Part shown: positions 4,493 to 60,786 of the stretch, in pieces
Numbering within the stretch: position 1 is the stretch's first letter
Layout: each line of letters opens with the position of its first letter
Source of the DNA: Dehalococcoidia bacterium
GTDB taxonomy: Bacteria > Chloroflexota > Dehalococcoidia > Lucifugimonadales > CATOSD01
Length of the DNA stretch: 64,000 nucleotides
Direction of reading: 5' to 3'
Assembly (NCBI GenBank): GCA_034422735.1
Contig: DAOUJL010000079.1
Location: forward strand, 37,699-101,698
Made by a program: the position numbers and the translations under genes
Notes under the pieces: model-generated
Databases searched by the model: none
What the model was told of the DNA's origin: nothing
Seen by the model: only the letters and a program-made list of their open reading frames with translations

Positions 4493-4619
4493 TCTGCTAT
4501 GTCCGCAGCGTACCTGTTGAGACTCCGAATTGTGCGCCATGCGATTCGTCCGGGCAAGGTCGTCCGCGTCGTCCGTTCGCCATATTGCCCGGCAACGTCC
4601 CCCGGACGCTCCAACGCAC

Positions 4620-5102
4620 ATCCCAACCGCACTCCCTCGCCCACACCCGGCTCAGTCGCTCCCCCGTACCCCGAAAATTCCGTAACTTTCCCGCGCCACG
4701 CGTTCCCCAGCCCTGCCTCTGCCAACCCCACGCACGCCCACCTCGTCCCCACGTCTGCGCCATTTCTCCCCACCAAACCGCCCCCATACCCACATTTTCA
4801 CTAAGGCCATTGCAATACACGTACATCCGTGCTAACCTCGGCCGTGTGAGGGACTGACCCCACGGCCCGCAAATCCTGCCCTCAATCGGGATTATGCCCC
4901 AGGCATCCGGCGGAACGCCCCTTCCAGGCGCCCTCCGGCGGCGAAGACACGGCCGGTCGGCCCGTCCGTCCCCTGTCCTCTTCTGCCACGCGGCGGGACA
5001 CTTTTGCTATGAATTGTCCCCTCCGGCATTACAGAACTGAGCAGGGCCACCGACGGTCCCAGCTACGAATCGCACAGAATGTCGCAGAATCTAACAGAAT
5101 TC
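4620..5102 (+). repeat. Divergent copy (A) of dispersed non-coding element: C-rich tract, promoter, CCCAGCTACG and 10-bp array
   Basis: CCCCGAAAATTCCGTAACTTTCCCGCGCCAC matches the tract near 39520-39555. CCCAGCTACG at 5058-5067. GAAT at 5067, 5077, 5087 and 5097. No terminal inverted repeats recognised. Confidence 0.7.
4810..4838 (+). promoter_or_regulatory. sigma70-like promoter inside element copy A
   Basis: TTGCAA-N17-TAACCT with an extended -10 TG; same position as the promoters in copies B, C and D. Confidence 0.5.
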
Positions 5103-5133
5103 GCCCTCCCGCTTTCCCAGCCACACCTGAATT

Positions 5134-5161
5134 CGTCATTCCCGCGAAAGCGGGAATCCAG
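5134..5161. repeat. CGTC-tagged REP-like palindrome (dRS3-like ATTCCC-N8-GGGAAT)
   Basis: CGTCATTCCCGCGAAAGCGGGAATCCAG is seen directly. Confidence 0.8.
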
Positions 5162-5306
5162 TGGAGGTTGGACACTCCGAAGCGAAGCCACCGGGTAATC
5201 TGACACAGCCTCAATGGCTGGGAGGAAGTGGCAGTGTAGCGGTGCAAAGGTCGGATTGGGTATATTGGATGAATACCGAGTGCAAGTGAGTATCTGAGGA
5301 GTCGGC

Positions 5307-7630: not shown

Positions 7631-7818
7631 TATTCGTTGAAATCGAGGCGCAGGGGGTTCTTTGACAACCGCTCCCCCGGGCAGGAACAATCGGGTCAGA
7701 AATTACTGGAATTCTGTCAACACTCCGTTGTCAATTTCTGCACACTTTGTCGTAGCTGACTCAGCTACAGGCGGGGCAGAGTTTGCACTTCCTGATAAGG
7801 GCGACCAGCGGGAGCGGG

Positions 7819-7848
7819 TTGTAAAGCGTTAGGCCGCATGGCTATAAT
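7819..7848 (+). promoter_or_regulatory. Putative sigma70 promoter of dnaJ-prmA
   Basis: TTGTAA-N18-TATAAT about 100 nt upstream of dnaJ. Confidence 0.55.
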
Positions 7849-32368: not shown

Positions 32369-32440
32369 CACGCTCACAAGGCTGCATTCGCGCCGGTATG
32401 GTCGGAAGCACGCCGTGCGCTAAACCCGAGGAGGTTGGCT

Positions 32441-33664
32441 TTGGACTTCACGTATCGTTACACGGATGAGCAGGAAGAGTTCAGGAGGGAAGTTCGCGAC
32501 TGGCTCGCGGCGAACGTCCCGGAGGACATGCGCGCGCCCGTCGACAGGCTCGACCTGAGCGACGAGCAGTACTGGTTCTGGCGTGACATGCACGTCACGC
32601 TGGCCGAGAAAGGTTGGCTCAACCCCACCTACCCCAAGGAGTACGGCGGCGGCGGCCTGAGCGGCGAGCACGAGACCATCCTGCTGGAGGAGTTCCGGCG
32701 CGCCCGCGTGGTGCCCAGCTTCACCAACACCCTCATCTACCCCACGCTGCTCGTGTGGGGCACCGAGGAGCAGAAGCAGCAGTTCCTGACCCCGATGCTC
32801 AAGGCCGAGAAGATCGCCTTCCAGCTATTCACCGAGCCGAACGCCGGCTCCGACCTGGCCTCCCTGCAGAGCAAGGCGGTGCGCGACGGCGACGACTGGA
32901 TTCTGAACGGCCAGAAGATATTCATCAGCGGCCATGGCGACCCGGATTGGCTGTACGGCCCGCTGATCACCGACCCCGACGCGCCCCGGCACCGGAACCT
33001 GGGCTACTTCATGGTGCCCTATCCCTCCGAGGGCCTGGACATGGAGCGCATGGGCCTGCTCACCGGCCACGACCAGAGCATGTTCTTCATGGACAACGTT
33101 CGCGTGCCCGGAGACCACCTCGTGGGCCAGGAAGGTCAGGGCTGGCAGGTGTCTCAGACCACGCTCGAGGTCGAGCACGGCGGACGCGGCATAGCCTTCC
33201 CGATCGACGAGTCGATGGATAACCTCCTCACCTACGTCAAGGGAACCAGGCACAACGGCGGCAGCCTCGGCGACGATCCGGTGGTCCAGCAGGACACCAT
33301 GGACGCGCTGCTCGAGACGCACGTGCACACCCTGCTGGCGCAGCGCAACTACTCGATGTACCAGGCGCGCCAGGAGATGAGCTACCACGGCTCGCAGACC
33401 TCGATGTTCCGCAAGGAGTACCACATGCGGAACGCCGACCGCGCCCGCAACGTGATGGGCATGTACTCGCTGCTCGGCGTCAACGAACCCCGCGCGCCCT
33501 TTAAGGGCGAGCCGGAGGTGTTCCAGCGCAGCAGCCTCACCGGGGCGCACCCCGGCGGCACCATCGAGATCCAAAAGGTCATCATGGCCCGCCGCATGGG
33601 CATCAGCCGCACCAGGGAGCGCGCGGCGCCCACGCCGTCCACCACGGGCGTCCGCGGCGTGTAG
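32441..33664 (+). CDS. Acyl-CoA dehydrogenase family protein (full length)
   Basis: TEPNAGSDLASL, NGQKIF, F.DNVRVP, GGTIEIQK. TTG start 6 nt after GAGGAGG. Confidence 0.92.
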   Translation: MDFTYRYTDEQEEFRREVRDWLAANVPEDMRAPVDRLDLSDEQYWFWRDMHVTLAEKGWLNPTYPKEYGGGGLSGEHETILLEEFRRARVVPSFTNTLIYPTLLVWGTEEQKQQFLTPMLKAEKIAFQLFTEPNAGSDLASLQSKAVRDGDDWILNGQKIFISGHGDPDWLYGPLITDPDAPRHRNLGYFMVPYPSEGLDMERMGLLTGHDQSMFFMDNVRVPGDHLVGQEGQGWQVSQTTLEVEHGGRGIAFPIDESMDNLLTYVKGTRHNGGSLGDDPVVQQDTMDALLETHVHTLLAQRNYSMYQARQEMSYHGSQTSMFRKEYHMRNADRARNVMGMYSLLGVNEPRAPFKGEPEVFQRSSLTGAHPGGTIEIQKVIMARRMGISRTRERAAPTPSTTGVRGV

Positions 33665-33679
33665 CCAACCGTACCAATA

Positions 33680-33718
33680 CTCCCTTCCCCCTCGCAGGGG
33701 GAAGGTTAGGATGGGGGT
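33680..33718. repeat. BoxC-like repeat between ACAD genes
   Basis: CCTTCCCCCT-CGC-AGGGGGAAGG-TTAGGATGGGGGT. Confidence 0.65.
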
Positions 33719-33816
33719 CAACCCGCCGCACAACCTGAGACCCTTCGCAATGGGGCCTTCCGAATCCGGACAAGGCCCCATTTGCTTTGTCTCACAGCCG
33801 CCAAAGGAGCACCCAG

Positions 33817-34635
33817 ATGGACTTCACCCACCCCTACAGCAAAGACCAGCAGGCCTTCCGCGTGGCCGTGCGCTCGTGGCTGGAGCACAACGCGCCCACC
33901 GGCCTGCGCATCCCGCCCGACGGCCGCCCGCTGGACGAGGAGACGCAGCGGGTGGTGAAGGACTTCCGCCGCCAACTCGGCGCGCAGGGCTGGCTCGCCC
34001 CGTCGTGGCCGCGCGAGTACGGCGGGGGCGCGATGAGTTCGGCGTTCGAGGCCATCATCATGGAGGAGATCCAGCGAATCGACCTGCCAAGCATGGGCGA
34101 CAACAACCGCTGGATACCTGCGATGATGGTGTGGGGCACCGAGGAGCAGAAGCGCCGCTACATAACCCCGGCGCTCAAGGGCGAGACCATCATCTGGCAG
34201 GCGTTCAACGAGCCGGACTCAGGCTCCGACCTGGCGGGCATCCGCACCACCGCCGTGCTCGAGGACGGGCAATACCACGTCAACGGGCGAAAGCACTACA
34301 TCACCGGGCGTTTCGATCCCGACTACCTCTGGACCCTGGCGGTCACCGACCCCGACCGCCCCCGCAGGCTAAACTTGGGTGTGTTCATGGTGGACGCGCG
34401 GTCGCCGGGCATCCGCATCGAGACCCAGCGGCTGCTCATGGGCAGCGAGCGCCGCGTCTACCTGGAGGACGTTGTGATCCCCGAGGACTGCCTGGTCGGC
34501 CTGCCCTACCAGGGCTGGGAGATAGCGCAGACCATCCTCGAAGGCGAGCGCGGCGGCTACACCCTGCGCGGCGACGAAAACGAGACGGCGGAGAGCATAG
34601 AACGCTTCCTCCGCGAGGAGCGCGAGCGGTCGTAA
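33817..34635 (+). CDS. Acyl-CoA dehydrogenase-like protein lacking the C-terminal helical domain (272 aa)
   Basis: NEPDSGSDLAGI, NGRKHY, LEGERGG, then a stop. AAGGAG RBS upstream. Confidence 0.85.
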   Translation: MDFTHPYSKDQQAFRVAVRSWLEHNAPTGLRIPPDGRPLDEETQRVVKDFRRQLGAQGWLAPSWPREYGGGAMSSAFEAIIMEEIQRIDLPSMGDNNRWIPAMMVWGTEEQKRRYITPALKGETIIWQAFNEPDSGSDLAGIRTTAVLEDGQYHVNGRKHYITGRFDPDYLWTLAVTDPDRPRRLNLGVFMVDARSPGIRIETQRLLMGSERRVYLEDVVIPEDCLVGLPYQGWEIAQTILEGERGGYTLRGDENETAESIERFLREERERS

Positions 34636-34662
34636 CCGGCCCAGCCGGCCACTGATTCAGTA

Positions 34663-35811
34663 ATGGACTTCGCCTACCAATACACGGATGAACAGCAGCG
34701 CTTCCGCGCCGAGGTGTCGGCCTGGCTCGACGCCAACGCGCCGCCTGACACTGCGCGCGGTCCCGACAGCCCGTCGCGGCAGCGCCTGCGGCTTGCCCTG
34801 GGCGAGAATGGCTGGCTCGCGCCGTCTCTGCCAGTCGAGCAAGGGGGCGCGGGCCTGACGCCGGACCACACGGTCGTGGTGCTGGAGGAGTTGGACAGGC
34901 GCGGGCTGCTCTCGGTGCACGACGCCGCGGGTGCCCAGCTACGCAGCGCGCTGATCGAGTCCGGTTCGGAGTCGCTGCGCGGCGAACTGCTTCCGGCGCT
35001 CGCCAGTGGCAGGGCGGCGGTGTGGCGCATGGTGCTGGACCCGCACGCCGAGCCGGGCAGCGACACGCTTGGCGTGAGCGCGCGTCCCGACGCCGACGGG
35101 TTCATCCTGGACGGCGAGGCCGCCTTCACTGGCGCGGGCGCGGCCCCGACGCACCTGTGGACGCTGGCGACTTCCGAGCGCGACGGTGCGATTCTGGCGC
35201 TGGTCGTCCCGGCCGCGTTGCACGGCGTCAGCGTCTCCACGCCCCGCACGCTCGCGGACGGCGCCTTGCACCGGGCCGCGTTTGAGGACGCCTGGGTTCC
35301 GCGCACGTCCATGCTGGGGGACGAGGCCGACGGCTGGCGTGTCACCCGCTCGGCGGCGCTGGACGACCCCGCGCTGGACCTCCCCGTTCCCGAGGTGAGC
35401 CGCGAGGCGGAGGCCGTGTTGCGGTTCGCCAGGAATACGACGCACGAGGGCAGGCCGCTCAGCGAGGAGCCGGTGCGCCGGATGCTGCTGGTGGAGGCCT
35501 ACGTGGACAGCCGGCTGTCGCGGCTGCTTGCGATGCGCAACCAGTGGCGCCGCGCCGCGGGACTGCCCATGACGTACGAGCTCGCCCAGGCGGACATGCT
35601 GAGGGAGCGGGCCGCGCTGCGCCTGTCCCACATCACGCAGGAAGTGGCGGGCGTGTACGCGCTGCTGGACTCGGACGACCCCCGGTCAGGTTCGCCGGGC
35701 TTTGCGACGCAGCAGCGCCAGAGCGTCGCCGGCCAGAATCCGACCGGACTGCCGGACGCCCGCAGGCAGGCCATCGCGGAGGCGCTGGGCATGAGCAAGC
35801 CGGCCGGCTGA
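34663..35811 (+). CDS. Degenerate acyl-CoA dehydrogenase-family protein
   Basis: ACAD-like N-terminus (TDEQQRFRAEV, GWLAP..P.EQGG), but FAD/substrate motifs are eroded (DPHAEPGSD; C-terminal GQNPTGLP). Confidence 0.75.
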   Translation: MDFAYQYTDEQQRFRAEVSAWLDANAPPDTARGPDSPSRQRLRLALGENGWLAPSLPVEQGGAGLTPDHTVVVLEELDRRGLLSVHDAAGAQLRSALIESGSESLRGELLPALASGRAAVWRMVLDPHAEPGSDTLGVSARPDADGFILDGEAAFTGAGAAPTHLWTLATSERDGAILALVVPAALHGVSVSTPRTLADGALHRAAFEDAWVPRTSMLGDEADGWRVTRSAALDDPALDLPVPEVSREAEAVLRFARNTTHEGRPLSEEPVRRMLLVEAYVDSRLSRLLAMRNQWRRAAGLPMTYELAQADMLRERAALRLSHITQEVAGVYALLDSDDPRSGSPGFATQQRQSVAGQNPTGLPDARRQAIAEALGMSKPAG

Positions 35812-35823
35812 GGAGAACGACTC

Positions 35824-36393
35824 GTGCGCATCGGCATAATCTCTGACACCCACAGCCTTCTCGACGACGCCAGCGACATGCCGTCGCAGATCCTGGACGC
35901 CTTCCGGGGCGTCGACATGATCATCCACTGCGGCGACCTGGACACGCTGGGCGTGCTGGACTGGCTGGAGACCGTCGCGCCAGTGCTCGCCGTGCGCGGC
36001 TACCCCGACCCCGTCGAGGAGGGCGAGCGGCTCGCCGACTCGACGCGCGTGGTGGAGGCGGAGGGCCTGTCCATAGGCGTCATACACGACATCGCCTGGC
36101 CCGGCATCCGTGTGCGGCTGGAGAGCTTCTTCGAGTTCCCGGACAGGCCGTTCGAGGCGGTGATGCGCTCCAAGTGGGGCCGGCCCGTGGACGTGATAGC
36201 CTTCGGCGACACGCACGAGGAGATGGTCGCCTGGTACGAGGGCGTGCTGCTGGTCAACCCCGGCAGCCCCACCAAGCCGGGCCTGCGCCACGGCGCGGGC
36301 GAACTGGGCACGGTCGCCATCCTCGAGGTCAGGCGCGGCGTAGCCACAGTGGAGCTGGTAAAGCTGCCCGGCCGGCTCTCACCCCCATCCTGA
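35824..36393 (+). CDS. YfcE-like metallophosphoesterase
   Basis: ISDTH, HCGD, VRG, HD, FGDTH, NPGS. Confidence 0.88.
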   Translation: MRIGIISDTHSLLDDASDMPSQILDAFRGVDMIIHCGDLDTLGVLDWLETVAPVLAVRGYPDPVEEGERLADSTRVVEAEGLSIGVIHDIAWPGIRVRLESFFEFPDRPFEAVMRSKWGRPVDVIAFGDTHEEMVAWYEGVLLVNPGSPTKPGLRHGAGELGTVAILEVRRGVATVELVKLPGRLSPPS

Positions 36394-36465
36394 CCTTCCC
36401 CCATCGTGAGGAAGGGACTACTGGGCCTCCTCTCCCTTGATGGGAGAGGATTGAGGTGAGGGTGA
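36376..36465. repeat. Inverted doublet of BoxC-like repeats
   Basis: CTCTCACCCCCATCCTGACCTTCCC...GAAGGGAC followed by CCTCTCCC-TTGAT-GGGAGAGG-ATTGAGGTGAGGGTGA. Confidence 0.7.
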
Positions 36466-39327: not shown

Positions 39328-39418
39328 GGTGCCTAATCACCTCCAGCGGGTCTCGTGCCGTACAGAGGTTATCGCTATACGCAGCCGATGACAAGCCTGC
39401 TGTCCATTAGGAAAGCCA

Positions 39419-40096
39419 GGCCTTTTCATTCCCCGTCGCGGCAACCTGCCGGCGGGCGAGGGCAACGGCGTCACTTCCGCTTGTCACCACTCCCCCAACA
39501 CCAACCCATTCGCGCCCACGTATCCCGAAAAAAGCGTCACTTTCCCGCGCCACCCGTTCCCATCCGTGCGCCATCCATTCTCACCCGCGTTCTACCAGTT
39601 CCCGTCCGTGCGCCATTTCTCCCCACAAATTCGAACTGCCCCTACAATCTCGCCAACCCTATTGATTCTACAGCACGCACGTGCTATTTTCTACGTAGCA
39701 GTCGCCGCGGCGCCAGTTGTGGAGTAGGGGCGGAGCCTGCCCTGAACTTGCCGAATGGGTTTGAAACCCGCCCGTTCCCCGCCCAAGATCACTGTCGCGT
39801 TCTGCGACATTTGGCGCAATGCGCGTGACGAACCTTAACAACTTGGCTCACAAGAAGTGACAATAGAATCGGACCGCCCAGCTACGGAATGGGCAGAATT
39901 GTGCAGAACTGAGCAGATTTTTCCGAGAGCCGCGCCCAAAGCCCTTCCGCTTGTCCCCTCTCCCTCGATGGGAGAGGGCTAGAGCCTGCCCCGTACTTGA
40001 TGCGGGGGCGAGGGTGAAGACACGACCACAGCCGACGAATCTAAAGCCTCCATCCCGACCCTCTCTCCTGACCGGAGAGGGCAGAATGAAAAGGCT
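39419..40096 (+). mobile_element. MITE-like non-autonomous element, copy B
   Basis: Terminal inverted repeats GCCTTTTCATTC (39420-39431) and GAATGAAAAGGC (40084-40095). The body aligns by eye over more than 500 bp with the reverse complement of 60130-60751. Confidence 0.75.
39662..39690 (+). promoter_or_regulatory. sigma70-like promoter inside element copy B
   Basis: TTGATT-N17-TATTTT with an extended -10 TG. Confidence 0.5.
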
Positions 40097-40183
40097 CTGG
40101 GTTGCGGGCGGCGTGCTTGCACTCCGTGACAGGCGTGGACTAGAATCGAGCCGAATCTTTGGAACAGTTTTGAAGAGGATGGA

Positions 40184-43949: not shown

Positions 43950-45047
43950 ATGACTGACAAGGGAAGGGTCGTCGTCGCTATGAGCGGGGGTGTGGACTCC
44001 TCCGTCGCCGCGCTGCTGCTCAAGCGGCAGGGCTTCGACGTCGTGGGCGTCACCATGCGGCTGTGGTCGGTGGAGGATCCCAACGCCCCCGCGCTGAACA
44101 AGCGCTGCTGCTCGGTGGAGGACGTGGACGACGCCCGCCGCGTGTGCCAGGTCATCGGCGCGCCGCACTACGTGATGAACTTCGAGCGCGAGTTCCAGCA
44201 GCACGTCATCGACTACTTCGTTCGCGAGTACGACCGCGGCCGCACGCCCCACCCCTGCCTGGCCTGCAACGACAGGATCAAGTTCGACTTCCTGCTGCGC
44301 CGGGCGATGTTCCTGGGCGCCGACTACGTGGCCACCGGCCACTACGCCCGCATACGGCGCGGCGAGGACGGCTACCGGCTGCTGACGGGCGCCGACGGGA
44401 GCAAAGACCAGTCCTACGTCCTGTTCACGCTCCGACAGCGTGAGTTGGAGCGGCTGCTTCTGCCGGTTGGCGAGTACCCCAAGAGCGAGGTGCGCGACCT
44501 GGCGGCGGAGGCGGGTCTGCCGGTGGCGGACAAGCCCGACAGCCAGGAGATCTGCTTCATACCGTCCGGAGATTACCGCAAGTTCGTTGGGGAGCGCACC
44601 AAGCCGAGGGCGGGCGAGATGGTGTCCACCTCTGGTGAGGTGCTCGGCGAGCATCCCGGAATCCAGTTCTTCACCATCGGCCAGCGCAGGCGGCTGGGAC
44701 TCCAGGGCAACACCGGCGCGCCGATGTACGTCGTGGAGATAGACACCGACTCGAACCGCGTGGTGCTTGGCCGAGAGGACGACCTGCTGAGGCGGTCGTT
44801 CTGGGCGTCCAGGGTCAATTTTACGGCTGGTGAGACTCCCTCCGGCCCCCTCGCCGTCGATGCCAAAATACGCTACAAGTCGGGGCGGGCCGCCGCGTCC
44901 ATCGTGCCCCACGGTGACTGGGCAGAAATCTGTTTCGACACGCCCCAGCGGGCGGTCACTCCCGGGCAGGCGGTGGTATTCTACCGCGGCGACGAGGTGC
45001 TGGGCGGCGGCATAATCGAGCTGGAGCCGCCGAGCGTTGCCGCGTGA
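43950..45047 (+). CDS. mnmA: tRNA-specific 2-thiouridylase
   Basis: AMSGGVDSS, TPHPCLACN, ATGHY, KDQSY, DSQEICF, TIGQRR, PGQA. Confidence 0.97.
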   Translation: MTDKGRVVVAMSGGVDSSVAALLLKRQGFDVVGVTMRLWSVEDPNAPALNKRCCSVEDVDDARRVCQVIGAPHYVMNFEREFQQHVIDYFVREYDRGRTPHPCLACNDRIKFDFLLRRAMFLGADYVATGHYARIRRGEDGYRLLTGADGSKDQSYVLFTLRQRELERLLLPVGEYPKSEVRDLAAEAGLPVADKPDSQEICFIPSGDYRKFVGERTKPRAGEMVSTSGEVLGEHPGIQFFTIGQRRRLGLQGNTGAPMYVVEIDTDSNRVVLGREDDLLRRSFWASRVNFTAGETPSGPLAVDAKIRYKSGRAAASIVPHGDWAEICFDTPQRAVTPGQAVVFYRGDEVLGGGIIELEPPSVAA

Positions 45048-46065
45048 CCTCGGCCCGCGCCAGGCCGCCAGGCAGCAGAAGCCGACGCTTGCGCACGAGC
45101 AACGGCTGCGAGAGCAGGGCATCTGGCCCGTCGCCGGGCTGGACGAGGCCGGACGCGGCTCCATAGCCGGACCGGTCACCGCCGGGGTAGTGGTGCTTCC
45201 TCCGGACGTGCCGGACTGCCAGGACGCCCCGATACGCGACAGCAAGCGGCTCACACCCGCTCAGCGGGAGCGGGCGCTGCGGCACATCGAGTCCATCGCG
45301 CTCGCGGTGGGCGTCGGCCACTGCTCCGCACCTGAAATCGACGAGATGGGCATCGCGCCCGCGACGCGCGTCGCCATGAAGCGGGCGCTGGAGGCGCTCT
45401 CGCTGGAGCCGTCGTATCTGCTGCTGGACGCCTTCCCCCTGCCCGGGGTCGCCACGCCCCAGCTCGCCATAGTGCGCGGCGACGCGACCTGCATGTCCAT
45501 CGCCGCCGCGTCCATTGTCGCCAAGGTTGCGCGGGATCGGCACATGGCCGAGCAGGACGAGCGGATTCCGGGCTACGGGTTCGCCCGCCACAAGGGCTAC
45601 GGCACCGCCGAGCACATTCGGAACCTGGAGCGGCTGGGGCCTAGCTCCATACACCGGCGCACCTTCGCGCCCCTGAAGCTCACTCTGGCGCTCAGCCAGG
45701 AGACGCCCAGGCAGGGGCTTGGGAAAACCGGCGAGGAACTGGCGCGCCGGCGACTGGTGGAGGACGGGCGCGCCGTCCTGGCCGCCAACTTCCGCACACG
45801 CAGCGGGGAGATCGACCTCGTTACCGAGAAGGACGGCGTGGTGGCGTTCGTCGAAGTCCGTGCGAAGCGCGGGACGGCGTTCGGCACGCCGGAGGAATCG
45901 CTCACAAGGCGCAAGCTGGCCCGTATGGTGAGGTGCGCCCACGAGTTTCTGGCCGAGCGGCGCTGGCAGAACCGCCCCTGGCGCATCGACGTGGTGGCCG
46001 TAGAGATGGACAGGTCGGGCAGGCTGCGGCGCGTCGAAGTGCTCGAGAACGCCGTGGAGGGATGA
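45037..46065 (+). CDS. rnhB: Ribonuclease HII fused to a C-terminal YraN (UPF0102) PD-(D/E)xK nuclease domain
   Basis: GLDEAGRG, DSK, SIAAASIVAK, KGYGT, then without a stop G..GEELA, GEIDLV, FVEV, RIDVVAV. Confidence 0.92.
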   Translation: MPRDLGPRQAARQQKPTLAHEQRLREQGIWPVAGLDEAGRGSIAGPVTAGVVVLPPDVPDCQDAPIRDSKRLTPAQRERALRHIESIALAVGVGHCSAPEIDEMGIAPATRVAMKRALEALSLEPSYLLLDAFPLPGVATPQLAIVRGDATCMSIAAASIVAKVARDRHMAEQDERIPGYGFARHKGYGTAEHIRNLERLGPSSIHRRTFAPLKLTLALSQETPRQGLGKTGEELARRRLVEDGRAVLAANFRTRSGEIDLVTEKDGVVAFVEVRAKRGTAFGTPEESLTRRKLARMVRCAHEFLAERRWQNRPWRIDVVAVEMDRSGRLRRVEVLENAVEG

Positions 46066-47169: not shown

Positions 47170-49356
47170 CTACCCGCTGCCGCGGTTGCTGTGGAGCAAC
47201 TCGGGACGGTCACGCCACTTGTCGAGGAAGCGGCGGTAGTTCTTGCGGCTCAGCTCGTCCCTCTCGCCCTCGGGCAACTCGCTCCAGACCCGGTGCTCAT
47301 GCTGGGCAACGGGCAGAGTGGGATCTGCGACGATGCGGTAGCCTCGGTCCTTGAAGTGGAAACTGTAATCGATGTCGAGGTTCCGGTAGAACCGGAAGCT
47401 CTCGCGCATCAGCCCCACACCCGCGAGGCTCTCGCGCCGGAATGCGAAGCAGTACGCCTGCATGGCATCCATGTCGCCGGACTCGCCCTCTCCGTCGTGG
47501 AAGTGGTGCAGGTCGTTGGTGCGCAGCCCGAATGGGCCGGCAACGCCCACGCTCTCGTCCTGCAGCATTGCATCGAGCGGGCCGAACAGGTCGCCGACCA
47601 CCTCTGTGCTGGTGTCGAGCAGCACTACGAGCTTGCCGCGGCACTGCTTCAGCACGATGTTCTTGGCGGCGCCTTCTCCTAGTACATGGTCCGTGTGAAT
47701 CACGCGAATCCTGGTGTCGCCTGCCGACGCCTCCTCCAGCCAGTCCGCCGCCCCGTCGACGGAGCCGTTGTCCACGACAACCAGCTCGACGGAGCGGCCG
47801 TCGGCCCACCTGAGCGTGGAGAGTACGCATCGCTTCACGTCTTCGACGTAGTTGCAGGCGACGATTCCAATGCTGACGTCCGCGGCGTCCGGCTCGTCGA
47901 GCAGGGAAGGCACCTCGGCGGAGGACGAGTAGCTGTGCCAGCCCTCCTGGCGCTTTTCCCAGGCGGTCTTGGGCCGCACACGGGACCCAGTCGCCGTGTC
48001 TTCCACCACGTAGCCCTCTCCGGATAGGGTGCCGCGGATGGCGTCCGCGCTGCCGTATTCGCCGGCGGAACGCATCTGCGAGCGATCTTTCACACGCGTC
48101 TCCACGTCGTCGGGCACAGCGTAGGCTGCGGCGGGCTGTTCCAGTTCGAGCCCGAGCACCTCGTCGAACGCGCGGACGGCGCGCAGCTTCAGCGCGGCGG
48201 GGGCGTCGGATCGCGCCAACTCCCAGGTCAGGGCCAGCGCCGCGGGCATGTTCAGGTCATCATTCACCAGACGCATGAAGCGGTCGCGCCATTCGAGGAG
48301 CGCGGCCTCGTCGAAGTCGGCTTCTCCGGACGCGCCGCTCCACTCCCGCACCCTGTTGCGGAGCCTGTGGAGGCCGCGCTGGGCGGCCTTGAGCGCGGTG
48401 AAGGTGAAGTTGAGCCTGGTGCGATACCTGGCGGTGAGGCACAGGTAGCGGAACGCGAGGGGGTCGATGTCCTGGCTCTCGATGTCCGAGAGGATGAACG
48501 AGTTTCCGGCCGACTTGGCCATCTTGACACCGTCGGCGAGCAGGTGCTGGCCGTGTGTCCACACGCTGACCACCGTTTCGCCGGTGAAGCCCTCGCTCTG
48601 GGCGATTTCGCCCTCGTGGTGCGGAAAGATGTTGTCCACGCCGCCGGTGTGCAGATCGAACCGGCGGCCCAGGTACTTGACGGACATCGCGGAGCACTCG
48701 ATGTGCCAGCCCGGAAAGCCCTCGCCCCAGCGACTGGGCCACTTCAGGTCGCGGCCCGGTTCCGCCAGCTTCCACAGCGTGAAGTCTCGCGGGTCCTTCT
48801 TCAGCGGGTCTGCCTCGACGCGCACCGCCTCCAGCAGCTCGGCGTCCTGGATGTTGCCGGAAAGCCTGCCGTAGTCCGCGAAAGAGTCCACGTCGTAGTA
48901 AACGTTGCCCTCCACCTCGTAGGCGTGGCCTGCCTCCACCAGTCCGTCCACTATCTCGAGCATCTCGGTCACGTGGTCGGTGGCCTTCGGGAAGTGCTTC
49001 GCCGGGATGATGTTGACCTTGCGCTCGTCGGCGAAGAAGCGGTCCGTGTAAAACTGGGCGATCTCGGCGGGCGTCTTGCCCTCGGCGATGGCGGCGGCGA
49101 TCACCTTGTCCTCGCCCTGCTCCAGCACCTCCTGGCGCATGTGGCCCACGTCGGTGATGTTCTTTACGTGGGTAACCTCGAGGCCCTGGGATTCGAGAGC
49201 GCGGCGGATCCAGTCGGCCATCAGGTAGGAGCGCAGATTGCCGATGTGGGCGTCGCGGTAGACGGTGGGGCCGCAGGTGTACATCTTTACCCTGCCTGGC
49301 TCAAGCGGGCAAAGCTCCTCCACTCGTCTCGTGAGGGTGTTGTATAGCCTAAGCAA
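47170..49356 (-). CDS. cysS: Cysteinyl-tRNA synthetase fused to a C-terminal GT2 glycosyltransferase domain
   Basis: CGPTVY, HIGN, GWHIECSAM, FPHHE, KMAKS and the anticodon-binding helices, then a GT-A domain (VVVDNGSVDG, G..AAKN, LLDTS, LDIDYS). TTG start inferred at 49356. Confidence 0.92.
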   Translation of the reverse strand: MLRLYNTLTRRVEELCPLEPGRVKMYTCGPTVYRDAHIGNLRSYLMADWIRRALESQGLEVTHVKNITDVGHMRQEVLEQGEDKVIAAAIAEGKTPAEIAQFYTDRFFADERKVNIIPAKHFPKATDHVTEMLEIVDGLVEAGHAYEVEGNVYYDVDSFADYGRLSGNIQDAELLEAVRVEADPLKKDPRDFTLWKLAEPGRDLKWPSRWGEGFPGWHIECSAMSVKYLGRRFDLHTGGVDNIFPHHEGEIAQSEGFTGETVVSVWTHGQHLLADGVKMAKSAGNSFILSDIESQDIDPLAFRYLCLTARYRTRLNFTFTALKAAQRGLHRLRNRVREWSGASGEADFDEAALLEWRDRFMRLVNDDLNMPAALALTWELARSDAPAALKLRAVRAFDEVLGLELEQPAAAYAVPDDVETRVKDRSQMRSAGEYGSADAIRGTLSGEGYVVEDTATGSRVRPKTAWEKRQEGWHSYSSSAEVPSLLDEPDAADVSIGIVACNYVEDVKRCVLSTLRWADGRSVELVVVDNGSVDGAADWLEEASAGDTRIRVIHTDHVLGEGAAKNIVLKQCRGKLVVLLDTSTEVVGDLFGPLDAMLQDESVGVAGPFGLRTNDLHHFHDGEGESGDMDAMQAYCFAFRRESLAGVGLMRESFRFYRNLDIDYSFHFKDRGYRIVADPTLPVAQHEHRVWSELPEGERDELSRKNYRRFLDKWRDRPELLHSNRGSG

Positions 49357-49624
49357 TTGTCGCCACTGTCCCTGAGATTCGCAGCAATTATACGACCGGC
49401 CGTCCATCGTGTCTAATGCGGGGCCGCGTCGTTAGGCGAGCGCTGCGGGCCGCCCGTACCCAATTGTACTGCTAAGTACCGGTCGGGGACTACGGAACAC
49501 GGGCGCTCATGCGGGCGAAATGCTATACAATGATGCGTGGCGGGTGGCTTGCGCCGCGTCTTCGTCCGCAGACTGTCACAACCACGACCTCAACCCGCGT
49601 AGAAGTTCCCCGCCGGTGTGCGTT

Positions 49625-50326
49625 ATGGTAGACATCAGGCAGCTATTCAATCTACAAGAACTCGACTGGGAGATCGCCTCCAGGGCCAAAACGCTGGAGG
49701 AGACCAGGTTTCGACTGAACGACGTGTCCGCCATCGAGGCGATGCGGCGCCGGCAGGCCCTGATCGGCAGCCAACTGGACGAAGCCCGCACCGAGAGGCG
49801 AAAGCGCGAGACGGCAGTGAGCGGATTGGAGCAGCGGCTGGAGAATCTGGATCGCAGGTTGTACGGTGGCTTCGTCACCAACCCCCGCGAACTTGAGGCC
49901 AGCGAGGAGGAGCGGGCCTTTCTGCAACAGCAGAGGTCGGAGGAGGAAGACGGCCTGCTCGAGGCACTGGTGCTCTCCGAGGAGTTGGAGGAGGGGCTGT
50001 CGGCGGCGGGCGAGCGCGTAGCTGCGATGGAGTCGGCCCGCGACGCGGAGCGGCCCGGTCTGCTGGAACGCGAGAGCCGGCTCGCAGCCGAGCTCGAGGA
50101 ACTGCGCCGGGCGCGCGAAGAGGCTGCGCCGCAACTGCCGGCGGGCGCACTTTCAACTTACGAGTCGCTGCTGAGAAGCAAGAACGGCCACGCGGTCGCG
50201 CGGGTCGAGCGGTCGGTGTGCCAGGGCTGCCGGATGACGCTGCCGTCGTTGGAGGTGCAGCGGGCCAAGTCTCCCACGCGAGTTGCTCTGTGCAGCAACT
50301 GTGGCAGAATCCTGTACGTGGTGTGA
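49625..50326 (+). CDS. Coiled-coil protein with C4 zinc ribbon (DUF164/zf-RING_7 family)
   Basis: LFNLQELD N-terminus, long heptad region, CQGC...CSNCGRILY. Confidence 0.9.
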   Translation: MVDIRQLFNLQELDWEIASRAKTLEETRFRLNDVSAIEAMRRRQALIGSQLDEARTERRKRETAVSGLEQRLENLDRRLYGGFVTNPRELEASEEERAFLQQQRSEEEDGLLEALVLSEELEEGLSAAGERVAAMESARDAERPGLLERESRLAAELEELRRAREEAAPQLPAGALSTYESLLRSKNGHAVARVERSVCQGCRMTLPSLEVQRAKSPTRVALCSNCGRILYVV

Positions 50327-50333
50327 TCCGAGC

Positions 50334-51674
50334 ATGAGAGCTATCGGCTATTTTCGTCCCAAAGAGGGGCCAAAGTACGTGGAGGCCTTCGAGGAGGCCT
50401 TCCTGGACTACTGCGACCGTAACGGTCACCAGCCGGTGGAGACATTCTACGACTACATCGATGGGGGCGGCGGCCGGCTGCCCAACTATCGGGCGATGGT
50501 CGAGTTCATGCGCGAGAACACCGGCGGCTACCTCGTGGTGGTGCCGGACGCCACGCACTTGGGAGGCGAACTGGAAGCCGTGGCGCGCGCCGTCGTCGAG
50601 TTGGAAGCGCTGGGCGGCAAGGTGACGTGCGACGACGACGATATGCCCGATCCACTGCAGAACAGCTTCCTGACACTGGACGTGAAGGGCGTTTCGCGCA
50701 CGCGGAGCACTCGCATCCAGACGTCCATGCGCCGCCGCGCCATGCAGGGCCTGGGGCTGGGAAAGCCGCCCTACGGCTACCGCATCGGCTCGAAGGGAAC
50801 GCTGGAGGTGGTGCCGGAAGAGGTCCCGGTGGTGGAGCTGATCTTCCGCCTGCGCACGAAAGAAGAGCTGGGAGTCCGGCTCATCGCGCGCCACCTGAAC
50901 GAGCGGGGCATACCCACGCGGCGCGGCGGTAAGTGGAACATGGTCACCATCCGCGACATTCTGCGAAACTCTACCTACATCGGCACCTACCGCAGGTTCG
51001 ACATGAGCGTCCCGAACAGTCACGAGGCCATAATTCCGGGAGAGGTCTTCCGTGCGGCGCAGGAGGTCACGAGGGCGCGCCGACCGGTGGGACGCGTAGT
51101 CAACGCCCAGCCGTTTCTGCTGTCGGGCTTGGTGGTCTGCGGCTACTGCGACAATAAGATGATGGGCGTGACCCGCCGCCAGAGTTGGAAGCGCAAGGAC
51201 GGGCGCCGGGCACGCGGAGTCTATCGCTACTACCAATGCCAGACCCGAAACAACCAGAGCCTTTGCGGCTACCACACCTGGCGCGCCTCCAGGCTGGAGG
51301 GGACGGCGATGGGGCAGCTCAAGCAGGCCCTACGCTCCAGGGAATTGGAAGCGCGGTTGGACCCGGAGGCGGCCAAAAGCCGGCAGGAACAGGCCAAAGC
51401 CGAGTGGGAAACCCGCGTGCGGAATGCCGAAAGGCGCTTTGTGCAGAGCATGAGGCAGGCGGCCAGAGGCAAGCTCACCACCGAGCGGCTGGGCGAATAC
51501 CTCGATGACCTGGACAGCGTGAGGACCGCCGCGAAGAACGCGGATCGGCCCCTGGACGTCGACAAGACGCTGGCAAACTGGGATTCGCTGGATCTGGGCG
51601 ACCAGCAGCGCTTCCTGAACGAGCACGTGGCCCGCATAGTCGTCAAGGACGACTCCGTGGAGGTGGCGGTCTAG
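50334..51674 (+). CDS. Large serine recombinase homologue with degenerate catalytic domain
   Basis: Recombinase domain (PPYGY, IARHLN, W....IRDIL.N, HEAII) and zinc ribbon (CGYC, YYQC...C) are intact. N-terminal GYFRPK replaces GYARVS. Confidence 0.88.
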   Translation: MRAIGYFRPKEGPKYVEAFEEAFLDYCDRNGHQPVETFYDYIDGGGGRLPNYRAMVEFMRENTGGYLVVVPDATHLGGELEAVARAVVELEALGGKVTCDDDDMPDPLQNSFLTLDVKGVSRTRSTRIQTSMRRRAMQGLGLGKPPYGYRIGSKGTLEVVPEEVPVVELIFRLRTKEELGVRLIARHLNERGIPTRRGGKWNMVTIRDILRNSTYIGTYRRFDMSVPNSHEAIIPGEVFRAAQEVTRARRPVGRVVNAQPFLLSGLVVCGYCDNKMMGVTRRQSWKRKDGRRARGVYRYYQCQTRNNQSLCGYHTWRASRLEGTAMGQLKQALRSRELEARLDPEAAKSRQEQAKAEWETRVRNAERRFVQSMRQAARGKLTTERLGEYLDDLDSVRTAAKNADRPLDVDKTLANWDSLDLGDQQRFLNEHVARIVVKDDSVEVAV

Positions 51675-51825: not shown

Positions 51826-52101
51826 CAACCCCCTATTGACCCAACCCGTACATCCGTGCTACGCTCCTTCCATCACGCACCTACACAACCAAATCGCAAC
51901 CCTCGACCGCCCCCTGCCGGGTGTCCCATTCATGCCCTACCCTGTGGCGTTTCCGCACCAAATGCCGCCTGACGCGGGACACACGACGCCCGTGACAACC
52001 CAGACTGTGGCGCGCCCAGCTACGCAATGCATCGAAATGCATCAGTTTGCAACGCTTTCTGCTAAGGCGCGACACGGAATGACCCCGAATGACCCACATT
52101 C
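51826..52101 (+). repeat. Divergent copy (D) of the promoter/CCCAGCTACG/10-bp-array core
   Basis: TTGACC-N18-TACGCT shares GTACATCCGTGCTA with copy A. CCCAGCTACG at 52015-52024, AATGC at 52026 and 52036, GAATGACCC at 52077 and 52087. Confidence 0.6.
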
Positions 52102-52188
52102 CGCCAAGTTCCCGGCCCTGTCGCGCCGCCATCGCGTGACCGCCAATCGCGAGCCTTTAACAATTCAATATGTAAGCCATCCAAAACG

Positions 52189-52197
52189 TGCTACAAT
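52189..52197 (+). promoter_or_regulatory. Extended -10 promoter of rnpB
   Basis: TG-C-TACAAT ending 7 nt before the predicted RNA 5' end. Confidence 0.6.
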
Positions 52198-52203
52198 TCC
52201 TGT

Positions 52204-52577
52204 GTCGAGGTGGCCGGGCGGCCGCCCTGGTCGCGCCCACGGGCGCGGGCGAGGGAGGAAAGTCCGAGCTCCACAGGGTAAGGATGCCCGCTAACGGCGG
52301 GGCGGGGCGACTCGACGGAAAGCGCCACAGAAACATGCCGCCGCCTTCGCAACGAGGGCGGTAAGGGTGAAAAGGTGAGGTAAGAGCTCACCGCCTTGGC
52401 GGTAACGTCAAGGGCTAGGCAAGCCCCATCCGGAGCAAGGCCAAATAGGGGGAACACTGGCTTACCCGGCCATTCTCCGGGTTGGCCGCACGACCCAACC
52501 GGCAACGATTGGGCTAGATAGATGGCTGCCGTCCCGGTGTTCCGGGATACAGAACTCGGCTTACAGGCCGCCTCGAC
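52204..52577 (+). ncRNA. rnpB: RNase P RNA (type A)
   Basis: GAGGAAAGTCC near the 5' end and ACAGAACTCGGCTTAC near the 3' end; P1 pairing GTCGAGG/CCTCGAC; CCACAGAAA and GGTAAGAG conserved blocks. Confidence 0.97.
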
Positions 52578-52598
52578 CAAGCCACATCCCAGGACTCT

Positions 52599-60039: not shown

Positions 60040-60192
60040 GTGTGATGCACTCCCGTGAATGGCCCCGGCGGGGCTGCGGCGATTCTAGCACGGGGCGGGT
60101 AGAGACGCTAGTGATGGGCGCCCAGCGCGGGGCCTTTCCATTCTCCTCCCCCATCTCGGTCAGGGGAGAGGGTTAGGATGGGGGGCCTTATC

Positions 60193-60220
60193 AGGTTCCC
60201 CGGCTGCGCTCGGAATGAGA
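60193..60220 (-). repeat. CGTC/TGTC-type REP-like sequence nested in copy C
   Basis: Minus strand TCTCATTCCGAGCGCAGCCGGGGAACCT. Confidence 0.5.
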
Positions 60221-60478
60221 ACATCAGGGTCTCTGGGCGCGGCTCTCCGAAAAATCTGCTCAATTCTGCTACATTCTGCACATTCCGTAGCTGGGCGGCC
60301 CGATGTTCTTGTCACTTCTTGTGAGCCAAGTTGTTAAGGTTCGTCACGAGCATTGCGCAGAATGTCACAGAACGCGACCCGTTCGGCAAGCTCAGGGCAG
60401 GCTCCGTTCGGCCGAGGGCGGGCGGGTTTCAAACTTGCCCCCACTCCACAACCGGCGGCCGCAGTGCCTATGCTGTAG

Positions 60479-60507
60479 AAAATAGCACGTGTGTGCTGTA
60501 GAATCAA
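60479..60507 (-). promoter_or_regulatory. sigma70-like promoter inside element copy C, facing the corrinoid protein gene
   Basis: Minus strand TTGATT-N17-TATTTT. Confidence 0.5.
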
Positions 60508-60786
60508 GAGGGTTGGCGAAATTGCCGGATGGGGGCGAATTTGTGGGGAGAAATTGCGCACGAATGGGAACTGGTAGAACGTGGGTGAGAATGGCTGGAG
60601 CACGGATGGGAACGGGTGGCGCGGGAAAGTGACGCTTTTTTCGGGGTACGTGGGCGCGAATGAGTTGGAGTTGGGGGAGAGGGGACAAGCGGAAGGGACG
60701 CGGTTACCCTCACCCGCCGGCAGCTTGCCGCGACGGAGAATGAAAAGGCCCTGTGCCCAGCCCAGCGCCGCACCAGCATGGCCGCG

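Follow-up and report, generated by a model that had tools for sequence, protein, structure and literature searches.

A probable non-autonomous, MITE-like transposon family of Dehalococcoidia that inserts at a set distance upstream of sigma70 promoters

A cassette that recurs in intergenic regions of a Dehalococcoidia bacterium probably makes up the inside and right-hand portion of transposons that are non-autonomous, MITE-like and promoter-targeting. Members of this family are 0.6-0.8 kb in length and have been seen so far in one group of Dehalococcoidia only. Three filled/empty orthologous sites and 9-bp target duplications show that the elements are mobile, and on insertion the tip of one terminal inverted repeat (TIR) comes to lie 16 bp (15-17) ahead of the -35 box in a sigma70 promoter that was already there. 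The cassette came to attention in a first-pass annotation of the window (the whole stretch of DNA that was analysed, 64 kb), which listed four intergenic regions with a promoter, an exact decamer and an array of short motifs at 10-bp spacing. Every promoter-box and array coordinate in that list is correct and the cassette is indeed shared, but the 293-bp unit that had been delimited is not the true one, which is much longer, and one of the four members is only a degenerate relative. The idea that the cassette might be the end of an unrecognised mobile element was essentially right, since the elements are bounded by TIRs and have filled and empty sites and 9-bp duplications.

The decamer, CCCAGCTACG, has five exact occurrences in the 64-kb window versus 0.13 expected from shuffles. 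The one at 34934 is a chance match, within an acyl-CoA dehydrogenase gene and without any other shared feature. In the four window copies, here called A to D, the -10 box and the decamer are 220, 187, 184 and 150 nt apart. Copy A (4569..5212, plus strand, about 644 bp) is a type A copy in the gap between rsmI and the Mo-oxidoreductase gene. It is 5'-truncated and has no left TIR, and its profile match covers nearly the whole model. Its boundaries are approximate, the junctions having diverged: blastn gives extra DNA at about 4599-5219, and reading the junction by eye puts the left edge at about 4569. On the plus strand it holds an internal promoter box, M2 (4810..4838; -35 TTGCAA, 17-nt spacer, TGC, -10 TAACCT); S1, which is two array units in inverted orientation (CTGTCCTCTTCTGCCAC, 4973..4989); the decamer with its 10-bp-phased CAGAAT array (5058..5100, GAAT at 5067/77/87/97); a REP-like hairpin, GTCATTCCCGCGAAAGCGGGAATCCAG (5135..5161), inserted between array and right TIR and missing from most other type A copies; and the right TIR itself, CCGGGTAATCTGACACAGCCTC (5191..5212, TIR profile match 5189-5212).

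Copies B and C are complete and of type B. Copy B (39417..40099, plus strand, 683 bp) has a minus-strand esterase gene on one side and a plus-strand hypothetical gene on the other, with its TIR pair at 39419-39434(+) and 40081-40096(-), M2 at 39662..39690 (plus strand; TTGATT-17-TATTTT with TGC), and the decamer, CAGAAT array and conserved type B inner end, ...CAGATTTTTCCGAGAGCCGCGCCCAAAG, at 39877..39941 (plus strand; GCAGA at 39893/903/913). Copy C (60128..60753, minus strand, 626 bp +/-2) lies between the MtaA-like and corrinoid-protein genes. Its TIR pair is at 60131-60146 and 60735-60750, and on the minus strand M2 (TTGATT-17-TATTTT) is found at 60479..60507 and the decamer, array and type B inner end at 60231..60295 (TCTGC at 60255/65/75). 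These two have some 620-680 bp in common at 83-88% identity. Copy A has about 640 bp in common with other type A copies; with B and C it shares only a 5' block of about 200 bp (67-72% identity) and a 3' decamer/array block of about 70-130 bp (about 65%). The degenerate copy D, close to rnpB (51836..52062, plus strand), consists of TTGACC-18-TACGCT, the exact decamer and AATGCATC units (AATGC at 52026/36). All that it has in common with the others is the promoter box, the decamer and 10-bp units in degenerate form; no TIRs were recognised in it and its score is below the element-profile threshold. It belongs to a third, separate subtype, also seen at loci L002 and L039.

A strict-pattern scan found 69 further copies, all of them in eight Dehalococcoidia MAGs, with 1-18 per genome. 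The search pattern itself included the decamer and array units one and two, which are therefore invariant at the 69 loci partly because of how these were picked. With a similarity profile and with nhmmer the copies are mostly full-length; complete ones measure 570-1092 bp, typically 620-780. Every copy is intergenic. The GC content of the element is 59-63% versus 66% for the window, which makes it relatively, not absolutely, AT-rich. The proteins encoded downstream are diverse (38 singletons), and we rejected the notion that the cassette is the leader of one gene family. Some other candidates also fell. Indels of about 600-800 nt between the syntenic loci L007/L063, L001/L036 and L058/L060 proved in no case to be a copy of the element family. 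Locus L045 had looked like an autonomous copy with a long spacer, a false alarm caused by the variant box TGTGCTA. The 1.1-kb insert in the copy at L030 is an unrelated insertion sequence of the ISAs1 type, which has TIRs of its own and a duplication of 11 bp. The tip of that insert, CAGGGC, resembles the type B tip at 11/20 positions, which is too weak a lead.

The ends of the elements are as follows. Type A ends read GAGCCTGTTTCAGATTACC... and form imperfect TIRs of about 27-35 bp, present at both ends in 8 copies by fuzzy match and in about 13 by profile. In type A both ends have C as their last 3' base: on the right the sequence closes with ...CAGGCTC-3', and on the left it opens with 5'-GAGCC. 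Type B ends read CAGGGCCTTTTCATTCTCC, a 19-bp TIR with 17/19 positions matching in window copies B and C, its tip being uncertain by +/-2 nt; the window has exactly four occurrences of this TIR, which make two inward-facing pairs, with 0.22 occurrences expected. Many copies of the family are without a left TIR.

The target duplication is 9 bp long. A perfect one, AAGGGCGAC, flanks a type A copy in a relative (locus L091), and the window has the single-copy, empty version of the same site (7797..7805, plus strand) upstream of the dnaJ promoter (-35 7819-7824, -10 7843-7848). Copy C, on the minus strand, is flanked upstream by GGCTGGGCA (60754..60762), which is single-copy in the empty sites, and downstream by CGCTGGGCG (60119..60127), identical to it at 7/9 positions. 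The gap that holds copy C measures 747 nt, versus 103-124 nt at L084, L085 and L086 in relatives with 92-96% protein identity, and two of these three relatives carry the element family elsewhere. The gap orthologous to that of copy A is 212 nt at L091 (empty) and 813 nt at L090 (filled), compared with about 740 nt in the window. The site of copy B is also filled at the orthologous locus L035. Alignment with that locus gives a left duplication, TAGGAAAGC (39408..39416, plus strand), and the partner, GAGGAAAGC, is kept on the right side of the L035 copy; by combining the two orthologues we infer for copy B a target duplication matching at 8/9 positions. In older type A copies target duplications are mostly unrecognisable, and in most old copies they are absent or decayed. 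Flanking repeats are usually lost in old MITE copies, according to a review (PMC10969869).

When full promoters were scored in 38 flanks, 16 matches fell at offsets 15-17 from the tip (11 of them at exactly 16) versus 0.13 per offset elsewhere (P about 1.5e-20). In 11/25 copies a TTG has its first base at +16 or +17, counted from the right tip, versus a per-position background of 0.018. Past the right tip of copy B, the gene downstream has a native promoter, TTGCAC-18-TAGAAT (40117..40146, plus strand), whose -35 starts 17 nt from the tip; past that of copy C, the corrinoid-protein gene has an extended -10 promoter, CGTGCTAGAAT (60082..60111, minus strand), whose -35 slot starts at 16 nt. The targeted promoters at the copy C and dnaJ sites pre-date insertion, because the empty sites already hold them. 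Counted from where transcription of the targeted promoter starts, the right tip comes to lie at about -52, and hence DNA of the element replaces the upstream region of that promoter. The right end is promoter-proximal at 12 loci and the left end at 3-5 loci, the latter in copies that have no promoter at the right end.

It had been noticed that the cassettes always point into the next gene. This is true of most copies in co-directional regions, where 19 are co-oriented with the downstream gene and 5 opposed (about 17:4 once orthologous loci are collapsed by hand). It is not true of all, and for copies A and B co-orientation is automatic, because their intergenic regions are divergent and only co-directional regions are informative. 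The way in which the elements insert can account for this co-orientation, at least partly: since the right end usually adjoins the targeted promoter, M2 would come to point into the downstream gene, and the bias would arise mainly in this way. Genes downstream, that of rnpB included, have their own promoters between element and gene. Rewiring of expression by the module is no more than a suggestion; the mode of insertion can account for at least some of the co-orientation, and the genes keep their promoters.

The claim of a portable promoter fared better and is supported at the sequence level. M2 has the consensus TTGAnn-17-TGnTAnnnT, and across 65 copies only positions relevant to sigma70 are invariant (TTG, TGn, TA...T). 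The conservation is 98% at T179 T180 G181, 98-100% at T199 G200 and 100% at T202 A203 T207; positions 204-206 vary freely and the spacer is 17 nt. This pattern shows the selection signature of a real sigma70 promoter, and we take M2 to be a predicted one. Native promoters of these genomes share the form CGTGCTAnnAT. A simple promoter scanner makes no call at M2, the hexamers of which match at only 8/12 positions. A reverse-strand promoter over M2 (TAGAAA-17-TAGAAT) was considered and rejected; it exists in the B/C subtype only, and across the family the positions on which it depends are variable. M2 faces the right end of the element, away from the left, and was probably once the promoter of a transposase gene. 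Neither a conserved terminator downstream of M2 nor an intrinsic terminator after the array was found, and with no terminator intervening, M2 transcripts probably continue through the array and past the right end as far as the host gene, which would thereby gain an upstream promoter. The C-rich 5' block was considered as a Rho-utilisation site, which is inconsistent with many copies having a divergent upstream gene.

Array units are exactly 10 bp apart, and the third is conserved though it was outside the search pattern. Direct units are confined to the right third of the element and inverted ones to the left two-thirds, and the TIR holds one. A unit in the TIR and inverted units further left point to a repeat derived from the element. 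The array would then be a tandem reiteration of the TIR motif, and its likeliest role would be to offer extra binding sites to the transposase, unless it is a relic of duplicated ends. Promoter box, S1, decamer and array occur together across subtypes with differing TIRs; such co-occurrence hints at a constraint separate from transposition.

Several other readings of these features can be suggested. In the one that survives best, though we consider it unlikely, the promoter box with its palindrome, S1, the decamer and the array are functional regulatory cargo that the transposon delivers and the host keeps. In its fuller form, which we regard as equally doubtful, a regulated promoter and an operator array co-regulate many genes by way of an oligomeric DNA-binding protein. 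The four features do stay together in subtypes A, B and D despite differing TIRs and differing remaining sequence, the downstream genes are diverse, and the spacer of M2 includes an invariant GCAC-N4-GTGC palindrome. Conservation between orthologous pairs is 0.90 for the promoter box and 0.82-0.92 for decamer and array, like that of coding flanks, whereas the spacer M3 has 0.46-0.61. This footprint is weak, however: non-element intergenic flanks are also about 90% identical in the one pair examined, the divergence of M3 is largely a matter of indels and REP-like insertions, and the figures for decamer and array are inflated by ascertainment. The geometry is a further objection, because the distance and helical phase of the array and decamer are variable with respect both to M2 (151-301 nt) and to the right tip (91-261 nt); it gives no support to the earlier proposal that the phased array binds an oligomeric or DNA-bending protein at the promoter. 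No candidate regulator was identified. If correct, this reading would mean that a promoter-targeting MITE brings a regulated promoter together with an operator array to one set position, -52, in front of dozens of unrelated sigma70 promoters, and that an uncultured Dehalococcoidia lineage has one regulon built by a transposon.

It is very improbable that the family is a multicopy gene for a non-coding RNA, with M2 driving a structured transcript of about 250 nt and the CAGATTT(T)T run marking its 3' end, and we give just as little credence to CAGAAU repeats serving in that RNA as protein- or RNA-binding sites. The promoter is conserved, as is an AGG close to the predicted start; in the minimum free energy structure of copy C the array is paired with the S1 region, A-to-G changes are in some cases found opposite U, and in type A a CCCGC...GCGGG hairpin with a loop of variable length follows 3' of the array. 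Yet S1 variants are uncompensated in the array, and no intrinsic terminator follows it. Single-sequence folds are no better than those of shuffles (z = -0.04, -1.6, -0.5), and RNAalifold finds 0 pairs with all copies and -2.3 kcal/mol without covariation with the 49 type A copies, the reverse strand being equally weak. Rfam 15 gave no match at the gathering score, the only match in the window being RNase P, and for copy B nothing credible at E<=10.

A bent-DNA or UP-like enhancer, in which A/T units phased at 10 bp and the A/T-rich right end curve the DNA and so stimulate the targeted promoter, would suit the exact 10-bp spacing and the element DNA that stands in place of the upstream region from about -52, and has a precedent in the IHF site of Correia elements (PMC10969869), but three or four GAAT units give little signal of curvature, the array is 91-261 nt from the tip without conserved helical phase, and it is hundreds of bp from the promoter in left-end-proximal insertions, all of which makes this most improbable.

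We return to the non-autonomous transposon and to the question of what moves it. No Pfam family matches an ORF of the element, and the indels by which copies differ leave no reading frame intact. We discarded a short ORF (13 codons, MRVTNLNNLAHKK) in the 3' module of type B, because several copies lack its start codon and other subtypes lack the ORF itself. No transposase was found in the 64-kb window and no TIR-flanked transposase in the fetched loci; a scan of metagenome contigs with the TIR 18-mer gave 14 chance matches, without the element core and with a GC content of 40-63%. A transposase of the ISKra4/ISLre2 kind, encoded elsewhere in the genome, may move the elements in trans. We think this kind likely, an assignment drawn entirely from insertion behaviour, length of the direct repeats and features of the inverted repeats.

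The consequences could be of practical use. The elements put an outward-reading predicted promoter of their own directly upstream of host promoters, at up to about 18 or more sites per genome, and would readily give rise to differences in regulation among closely related, uncultured Dehalococcoidia. Given the fixed spacing from tip to -35, each recent copy marks a real promoter, which amounts to promoter annotation free of experiments and without genetics. Filled and empty sites are usable as strain-level markers.

The family can be compared with several known systems. Operators of the OmpR/PhoB type are made of direct repeats at 10-11 bp spacing and have a fixed position relative to the -35 and -10 of the promoter that they regulate. 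The array is similar to these in that a 6-7 bp motif is directly repeated three to four times, once every 10 bp, and the inverted S1 unit, CTGTCCT, resembles a Pho-box half-site. In contrast to such operators, the distance of the array to both promoters varies here by more than 100 nt, and no cognate regulator is known.

Correia elements duplicate a TA dinucleotide on insertion. Along with other MITEs (Correia/CREE of Neisseria, MITEAba12, BrickBuilt, QMITE1 and SonMITE_1; PMC10969869) they are TIR-bounded, multicopy, intergenic and without transposase, as are the elements described here. The likeness is one of features, with no similarity of sequence to be expected, and the Dehalococcoidia elements differ in being GC-rich, in having a 9-bp target duplication and in exceeding the typical <500 bp. 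We call them MITE-like rather than MITEs because of this greater length, though the limit is given as typical rather than absolute (PMC10969869). MITEs are further described as AT-rich, as sitting in AT-rich intergenic DNA and as being moved in trans by an autonomous element whose ends match theirs (PMC10969869). Among promoter-carrying MITEs, sigma70-like promoters can drive neighbouring genes; Correia elements are found predominantly just upstream of genes, and BrickBuilt has an internal tandem repeat (PMC10969869). A precise 16-bp spacing to a pre-existing -35 is not reported for promoter-carrying MITEs (PMC10969869).

Promoter-targeted transposition itself is known for autonomous Mutator-like elements, mostly of Firmicutes, and for the ISKra4 group. 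Elements of the ISKra4 group (p-MULT 4) and of ISLre2/TnGBS (p-MULT 3) insert 15-17 bp upstream of the -35 of sigmaA/sigma70 promoters, with a peak at 16 bp from the right inverted repeat (PMC3942029). They are moved by a Mutator-like DDE transposase, which has a signature motif between its domains N1 and N2, and they transpose by way of a circular intermediate (PMC3942029). They are autonomous, 1.1-52 kb long, with inverted repeats of 18-39 bp ending in C and direct repeats of 8-9 bp (PMC3942029, Guerillot et al. 2014). It is usually the right repeat that adjoins the promoter, both orientations occurring when the repeats are near-symmetric, and the p-MULT 4 family is reported in Chloroflexi (PMC3942029). 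The same 15-17 bp offset, a 9-bp direct repeat, inverted repeats of fitting length with the terminal C (in type A) and mostly right-end-proximal insertion with both orientations recur in the Dehalococcoidia elements. These differ in measuring 0.6-0.8 kb and lacking a transposase, and no partner with the signature motif was found. The internal promoter, the decamer and the 10-bp array are not described features of p-MULT families. PMC3942029 describes no non-autonomous derivatives, and the word MITE is absent from it. As far as the searched literature shows, a miniature element that has no transposase and yet targets promoters with such precision is undescribed so far.

The cassette is part of a transposon. 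The first-pass annotation had described a portable promoter followed by a helically phased array at four loci, and its motif positions are all correct on re-checking. The promoter-like box reads TTGCAA-17-TAACCT in copy A (4810), TTGATT-17-TATTTT in copies B and C (39662, and 60507 on the minus strand) and TTGACC-18-TACGCT in copy D (51836). The decamer CCCAGCTACG stands 150-220 nt after each box and leads into motifs that are exactly 10 bp apart. The exact decamer occurs five times in the window, against 0.13 expected from shuffles; the fifth occurrence, at 34934 within an acyl-CoA dehydrogenase gene, has no other feature in common with the rest and was set aside as a chance match. This gene is the last of the acyl-CoA dehydrogenase-like tandem paralogues at 32435-35811, which have in common direct repeats of 147 nt and 50 nt that are 66-73% identical.

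The repeat unit is much larger than had been stated. Repeat finding and alignment identify 39419-39944 and 60228-60750 as inverted copies with 83-88% identity and 4636-5101 as a partial relative; copy D, near rnpB, has nothing in common with the others beyond box, decamer and degenerate units. The flanking genes are unrelated: rsmI and a Mo-oxidoreductase gene lie upstream and downstream of copy A, an esterase and a hypothetical gene of B, genes for an MtaA-like methyltransferase and a corrinoid protein of C, and a serine-recombinase-like ORF and rnpB of D. A single scan of a genome collection with the pattern decamer-N7-CAGAA-N5-CAGAA matched 69 loci, all within eight Dehalococcoidia MAGs, at 1-18 per genome, all of them minimum counts. 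By all-against-all comparison and an nhmmer profile, the majority of copies are full length. Their layout comprises a C-rich 5' block (M1), the promoter box (M2), a variable spacer (M3; box-to-decamer distance 151-301 nt) and a 3' module of about 140 nt (M4), which contains S1 (two inverted array units), the decamer and an array of three or four CAGAAT units in direct orientation. The copies cluster into type A (49 copies, window A included), type B (13, with both window B and window C) and three small groups; copy D is related to one of the small groups, the subtype of the family loci L002 and L039.

Several smaller features accompany this layout. Two spacer blocks of about 28 nt stand in swapped order in copies B (39731-39786) and C (60377-60434), consistent with tandem duplication followed by differential loss. 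GC-rich REP-like hairpin repeats, for example GTCATTCCCGCGAAAGCGGGAATCCAG and CCCCTCTCCCTCGATGGGAGAGGG, lie in or beside elements (5135-5161, 39945-40075, 60150-60230, 33683-33718 and 36381-36416), and such hairpins explain much of the length variation of the spacer and of the region from array to right end. The promoter-box part of the profile also gives short matches alone in L020 (2464-2564), L059 (5769-5814), L066 (2041-2094) and L085 (6437-6491), the last adjoining a DDE_Tnp_1_4 transposase gene; these may be native promoters or element fragments.

The annotation's own alternative, an unrecognised mobile element, was right, as polymorphic orthologous sites, inverted termini and target duplications attest. 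Type A copies, once their flanks are extended, end in imperfect inverted repeats of about 27-35 bp (left GAGCCTGTTTCAGATTACCAGG..., right ...CCTGGTAATCTGAAACAGGCTC). In window B and C the termini are a related repeat of 19 bp, CAGGGCCTTTTCATTCTCC; the window has exactly four occurrences of it (0.22 expected), which form two pairs facing inward. Filled and empty states were found at three orthologous sites. The gap between the MtaA-like and corrinoid genes is 747 nt in the window vs 103-124 nt in three relatives whose protein is 92-96% identical; copy C is an insert of 626 bp between GGCTGGGCA and CGCTGGGCG, and in alignment its flanking sequence is single-copy in the empty sites. In two further relatives, L087 (2078-2860) and L088 (1745-2422), this gap holds an opposite-strand NYN-domain gene instead. 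The gap is a recurrent insertion site. Between rsmI and the Mo-oxidoreductase gene, the window and L090 are filled, whereas L091 has 212 nt only. Upstream of dnaJ, conversely, L091 and L092 carry a copy and the window and L090 have none. The L091 copy there is flanked on both sides by a perfect 9-bp duplication, AAGGGCGAC, which is single-copy in the window (7797-7805), where it represents the unoccupied target site. From AAGGGCGAC to the -35 box of the dnaJ promoter (in the window TTGTAA, 7819-7824, with -10 TATAAT, 7843-7848) there are 13 nt in the window vs 7 nt in L091, a 6-nt difference.

No transposase was found inside the elements or in the 64-kb window. Among the family copies the only one met belongs to an unrelated ISAs1-type IS, which landed inside the L030 copy (1489-2717) between its C-rich block and promoter box; it encodes a 388-aa DDE_Tnp_1_assoc + DDE_Tnp_1 protein and has TIRs CAGGGCAATCGCATTT and an 11-bp duplication ACATTCTCGCC. 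The ORF next to rnpB (50283-51674, 463 aa) carries two domains of large serine recombinases, Recombinase and Zn_ribbon_recom. An N-terminal resolvase catalytic domain was not found in it, and its 5' end overlaps the gene before it; the ORF may be degenerate, or its start may be wrongly called. Also encoded in the window are a 745-aa protein with a cysteinyl-tRNA synthetase catalytic domain fused to a family 2 glycosyltransferase domain (47170-49407) and a 342-aa protein with RNase HII and UPF0102 (YraN-like) domains (45037-46065).

At most loci a predicted sigma70-like promoter, separate from the element, lies between element and gene. By a stringent score, one follows the array within 350 nt on the element strand in 19 of 73 copies and on the opposite strand in none of the 73. 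A TTG starts at +16 or +17 from the mapped right tip in 11 of 25 copies (background 0.018 per position). When orthologues were collapsed and both element ends counted, a complete promoter started at offsets 15-17 in 16 of 38 flanks, 11 of them at exactly 16, compared with 0.13 per offset elsewhere (P about 1.5e-20 for offsets 15-17). Because the targeted promoters are present in empty sites, they are part of the target, not of the element. Copies B and C fit this pattern: in B the -35 box, at 40117, stands 17 nt beyond the tip, and in C the distance from tip to -35 slot is 16 nt and the -10 box lies at 60082-60087. The promoter-proximal end is the right one in 12 loci and the left one in 3-5; among the left-proximal cases, no right-end promoter was found in L043, L045, L049 and L067, and in L055 the right end is not mapped. 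By crude gene calls, 60 downstream genes are co-oriented with the element and 9 opposed. The 24 copies in divergent regions are uninformative on orientation; co-directional regions give 19:5 co-oriented vs opposed, and convergent regions hold 2 copies only. This orientation bias and the scarcity of copies in convergent regions follow from the targeting of promoters by a proximal right end.

Is the cassette also a regulatory module, as had been proposed? For the promoter this is plausible. M2 lies outside the search pattern, so that counts by position in 65 copies are unbiased. In the -35 box (TTGAnn), T179, T180 and G181 are conserved in 98% and A182 in 80%; the spacer (185-201) is exactly 17 nt; T199 and G200 of the extended -10 (TGn) reach 98-100%; and in the -10 box (TAnnnT) T202, A203 and T207 are at 100%, with free variation at 204-206. 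Such a pattern bears the mark of selection for recognition by sigma70. The form CGTGCTAnnAT is common to M2 and many native promoters of this lineage; rnpB (52206-52579) has its own predicted extended -10 promoter, CGTGCTACAAT (52187-52197), which stops 9 nt short of the mature 5' end. The M2 spacer contains an invariant GCAC-N4-GTGC palindrome. M2 points from the left end to the right end, as would be expected of a former transposase promoter, which it may be. On the opposite strand of copies B and C a promoter-like TAGAAA-17-TAGAAT (9/12 matches) overlaps the box (B 39665-39693, minus; C 60476-60504, plus), with a predicted direction towards the left end; its positions show no conservation across the family. 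In orthologous pairs, identity is 0.90 for M2, 0.82-0.92 for M4, about 0.8 for M1 and 0.46-0.61 for M3. Because M3 divergence is due largely to indels and flanking intergenic DNA is also about 90% identical (one pair inspected), these values hint only faintly at host-level selection on the modules.

For the array the proposal is not supported. The array lies 151-301 nt from M2 and 91-261 nt from the right tip (mode 105; A 155, B 222 and C 167 nt); with neither distance fixed, phase-dependent action on either promoter is unlikely. Direct units ([CG]AGA[AT]) are confined to the right third of the element and inverted units to the left two-thirds, and each type B TIR contains one array unit (GGAGAATGG right, CCATTCTCC left). 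Conservation of the third unit, CAGATTT, is 78-99% even though this unit lies outside the search pattern, and copy D, found independently of that pattern, keeps the exact decamer. Our tentative preference is to read the array as additional sites for transposase binding or as a duplication of end sequence. Nothing marks the element as an RNA gene or as coding: an Rfam search of the window returned RNase P only, with no credible match in copy B, single-sequence folds were not better than shuffles, RNAalifold gave zero pairs for a mixed alignment and -2.3 kcal/mol without covariation for 49 type A copies (the reverse strand being similar), and Pfam matched no family in ORFs inside the element.

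We know similar behaviour from other transposons. The prokaryotic Mutator-like elements of Guerillot et al. 2014 (PMC3942029) make 8-9 bp duplications and have IRs of 18-39 bp with a C as the terminal base. Those of the ISKra4 group and of the TnGBS/ISLre2 family insert 15-17 bp upstream of the sigmaA -35 box, most often at 16 bp as counted from the right IR; elements with nearly symmetric IRs do so in both orientations, and the family including ISKra4 is reported from Chloroflexi (PMC3942029). A 2024 review sets out MITE criteria and lists MITEs with sigma70-like promoters (PMC10969869). Our literature searches returned neither a MITE from Dehalococcoidia nor one that derives from ISKra4 or ISLre2, and a TIR scan of metagenome contigs and fetched loci recovered no partner transposase. 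In an uncultured lineage the family is a useful promoter marker and strain marker. All testable behavioural features of the Mutator-like ISKra4, ISLre2 and TnGBS elements are found in it, and by this likeness, which is one of behaviour rather than of the defining enzyme, it represents a known kind of transposon in a variant that is non-autonomous and promoter-seeking.
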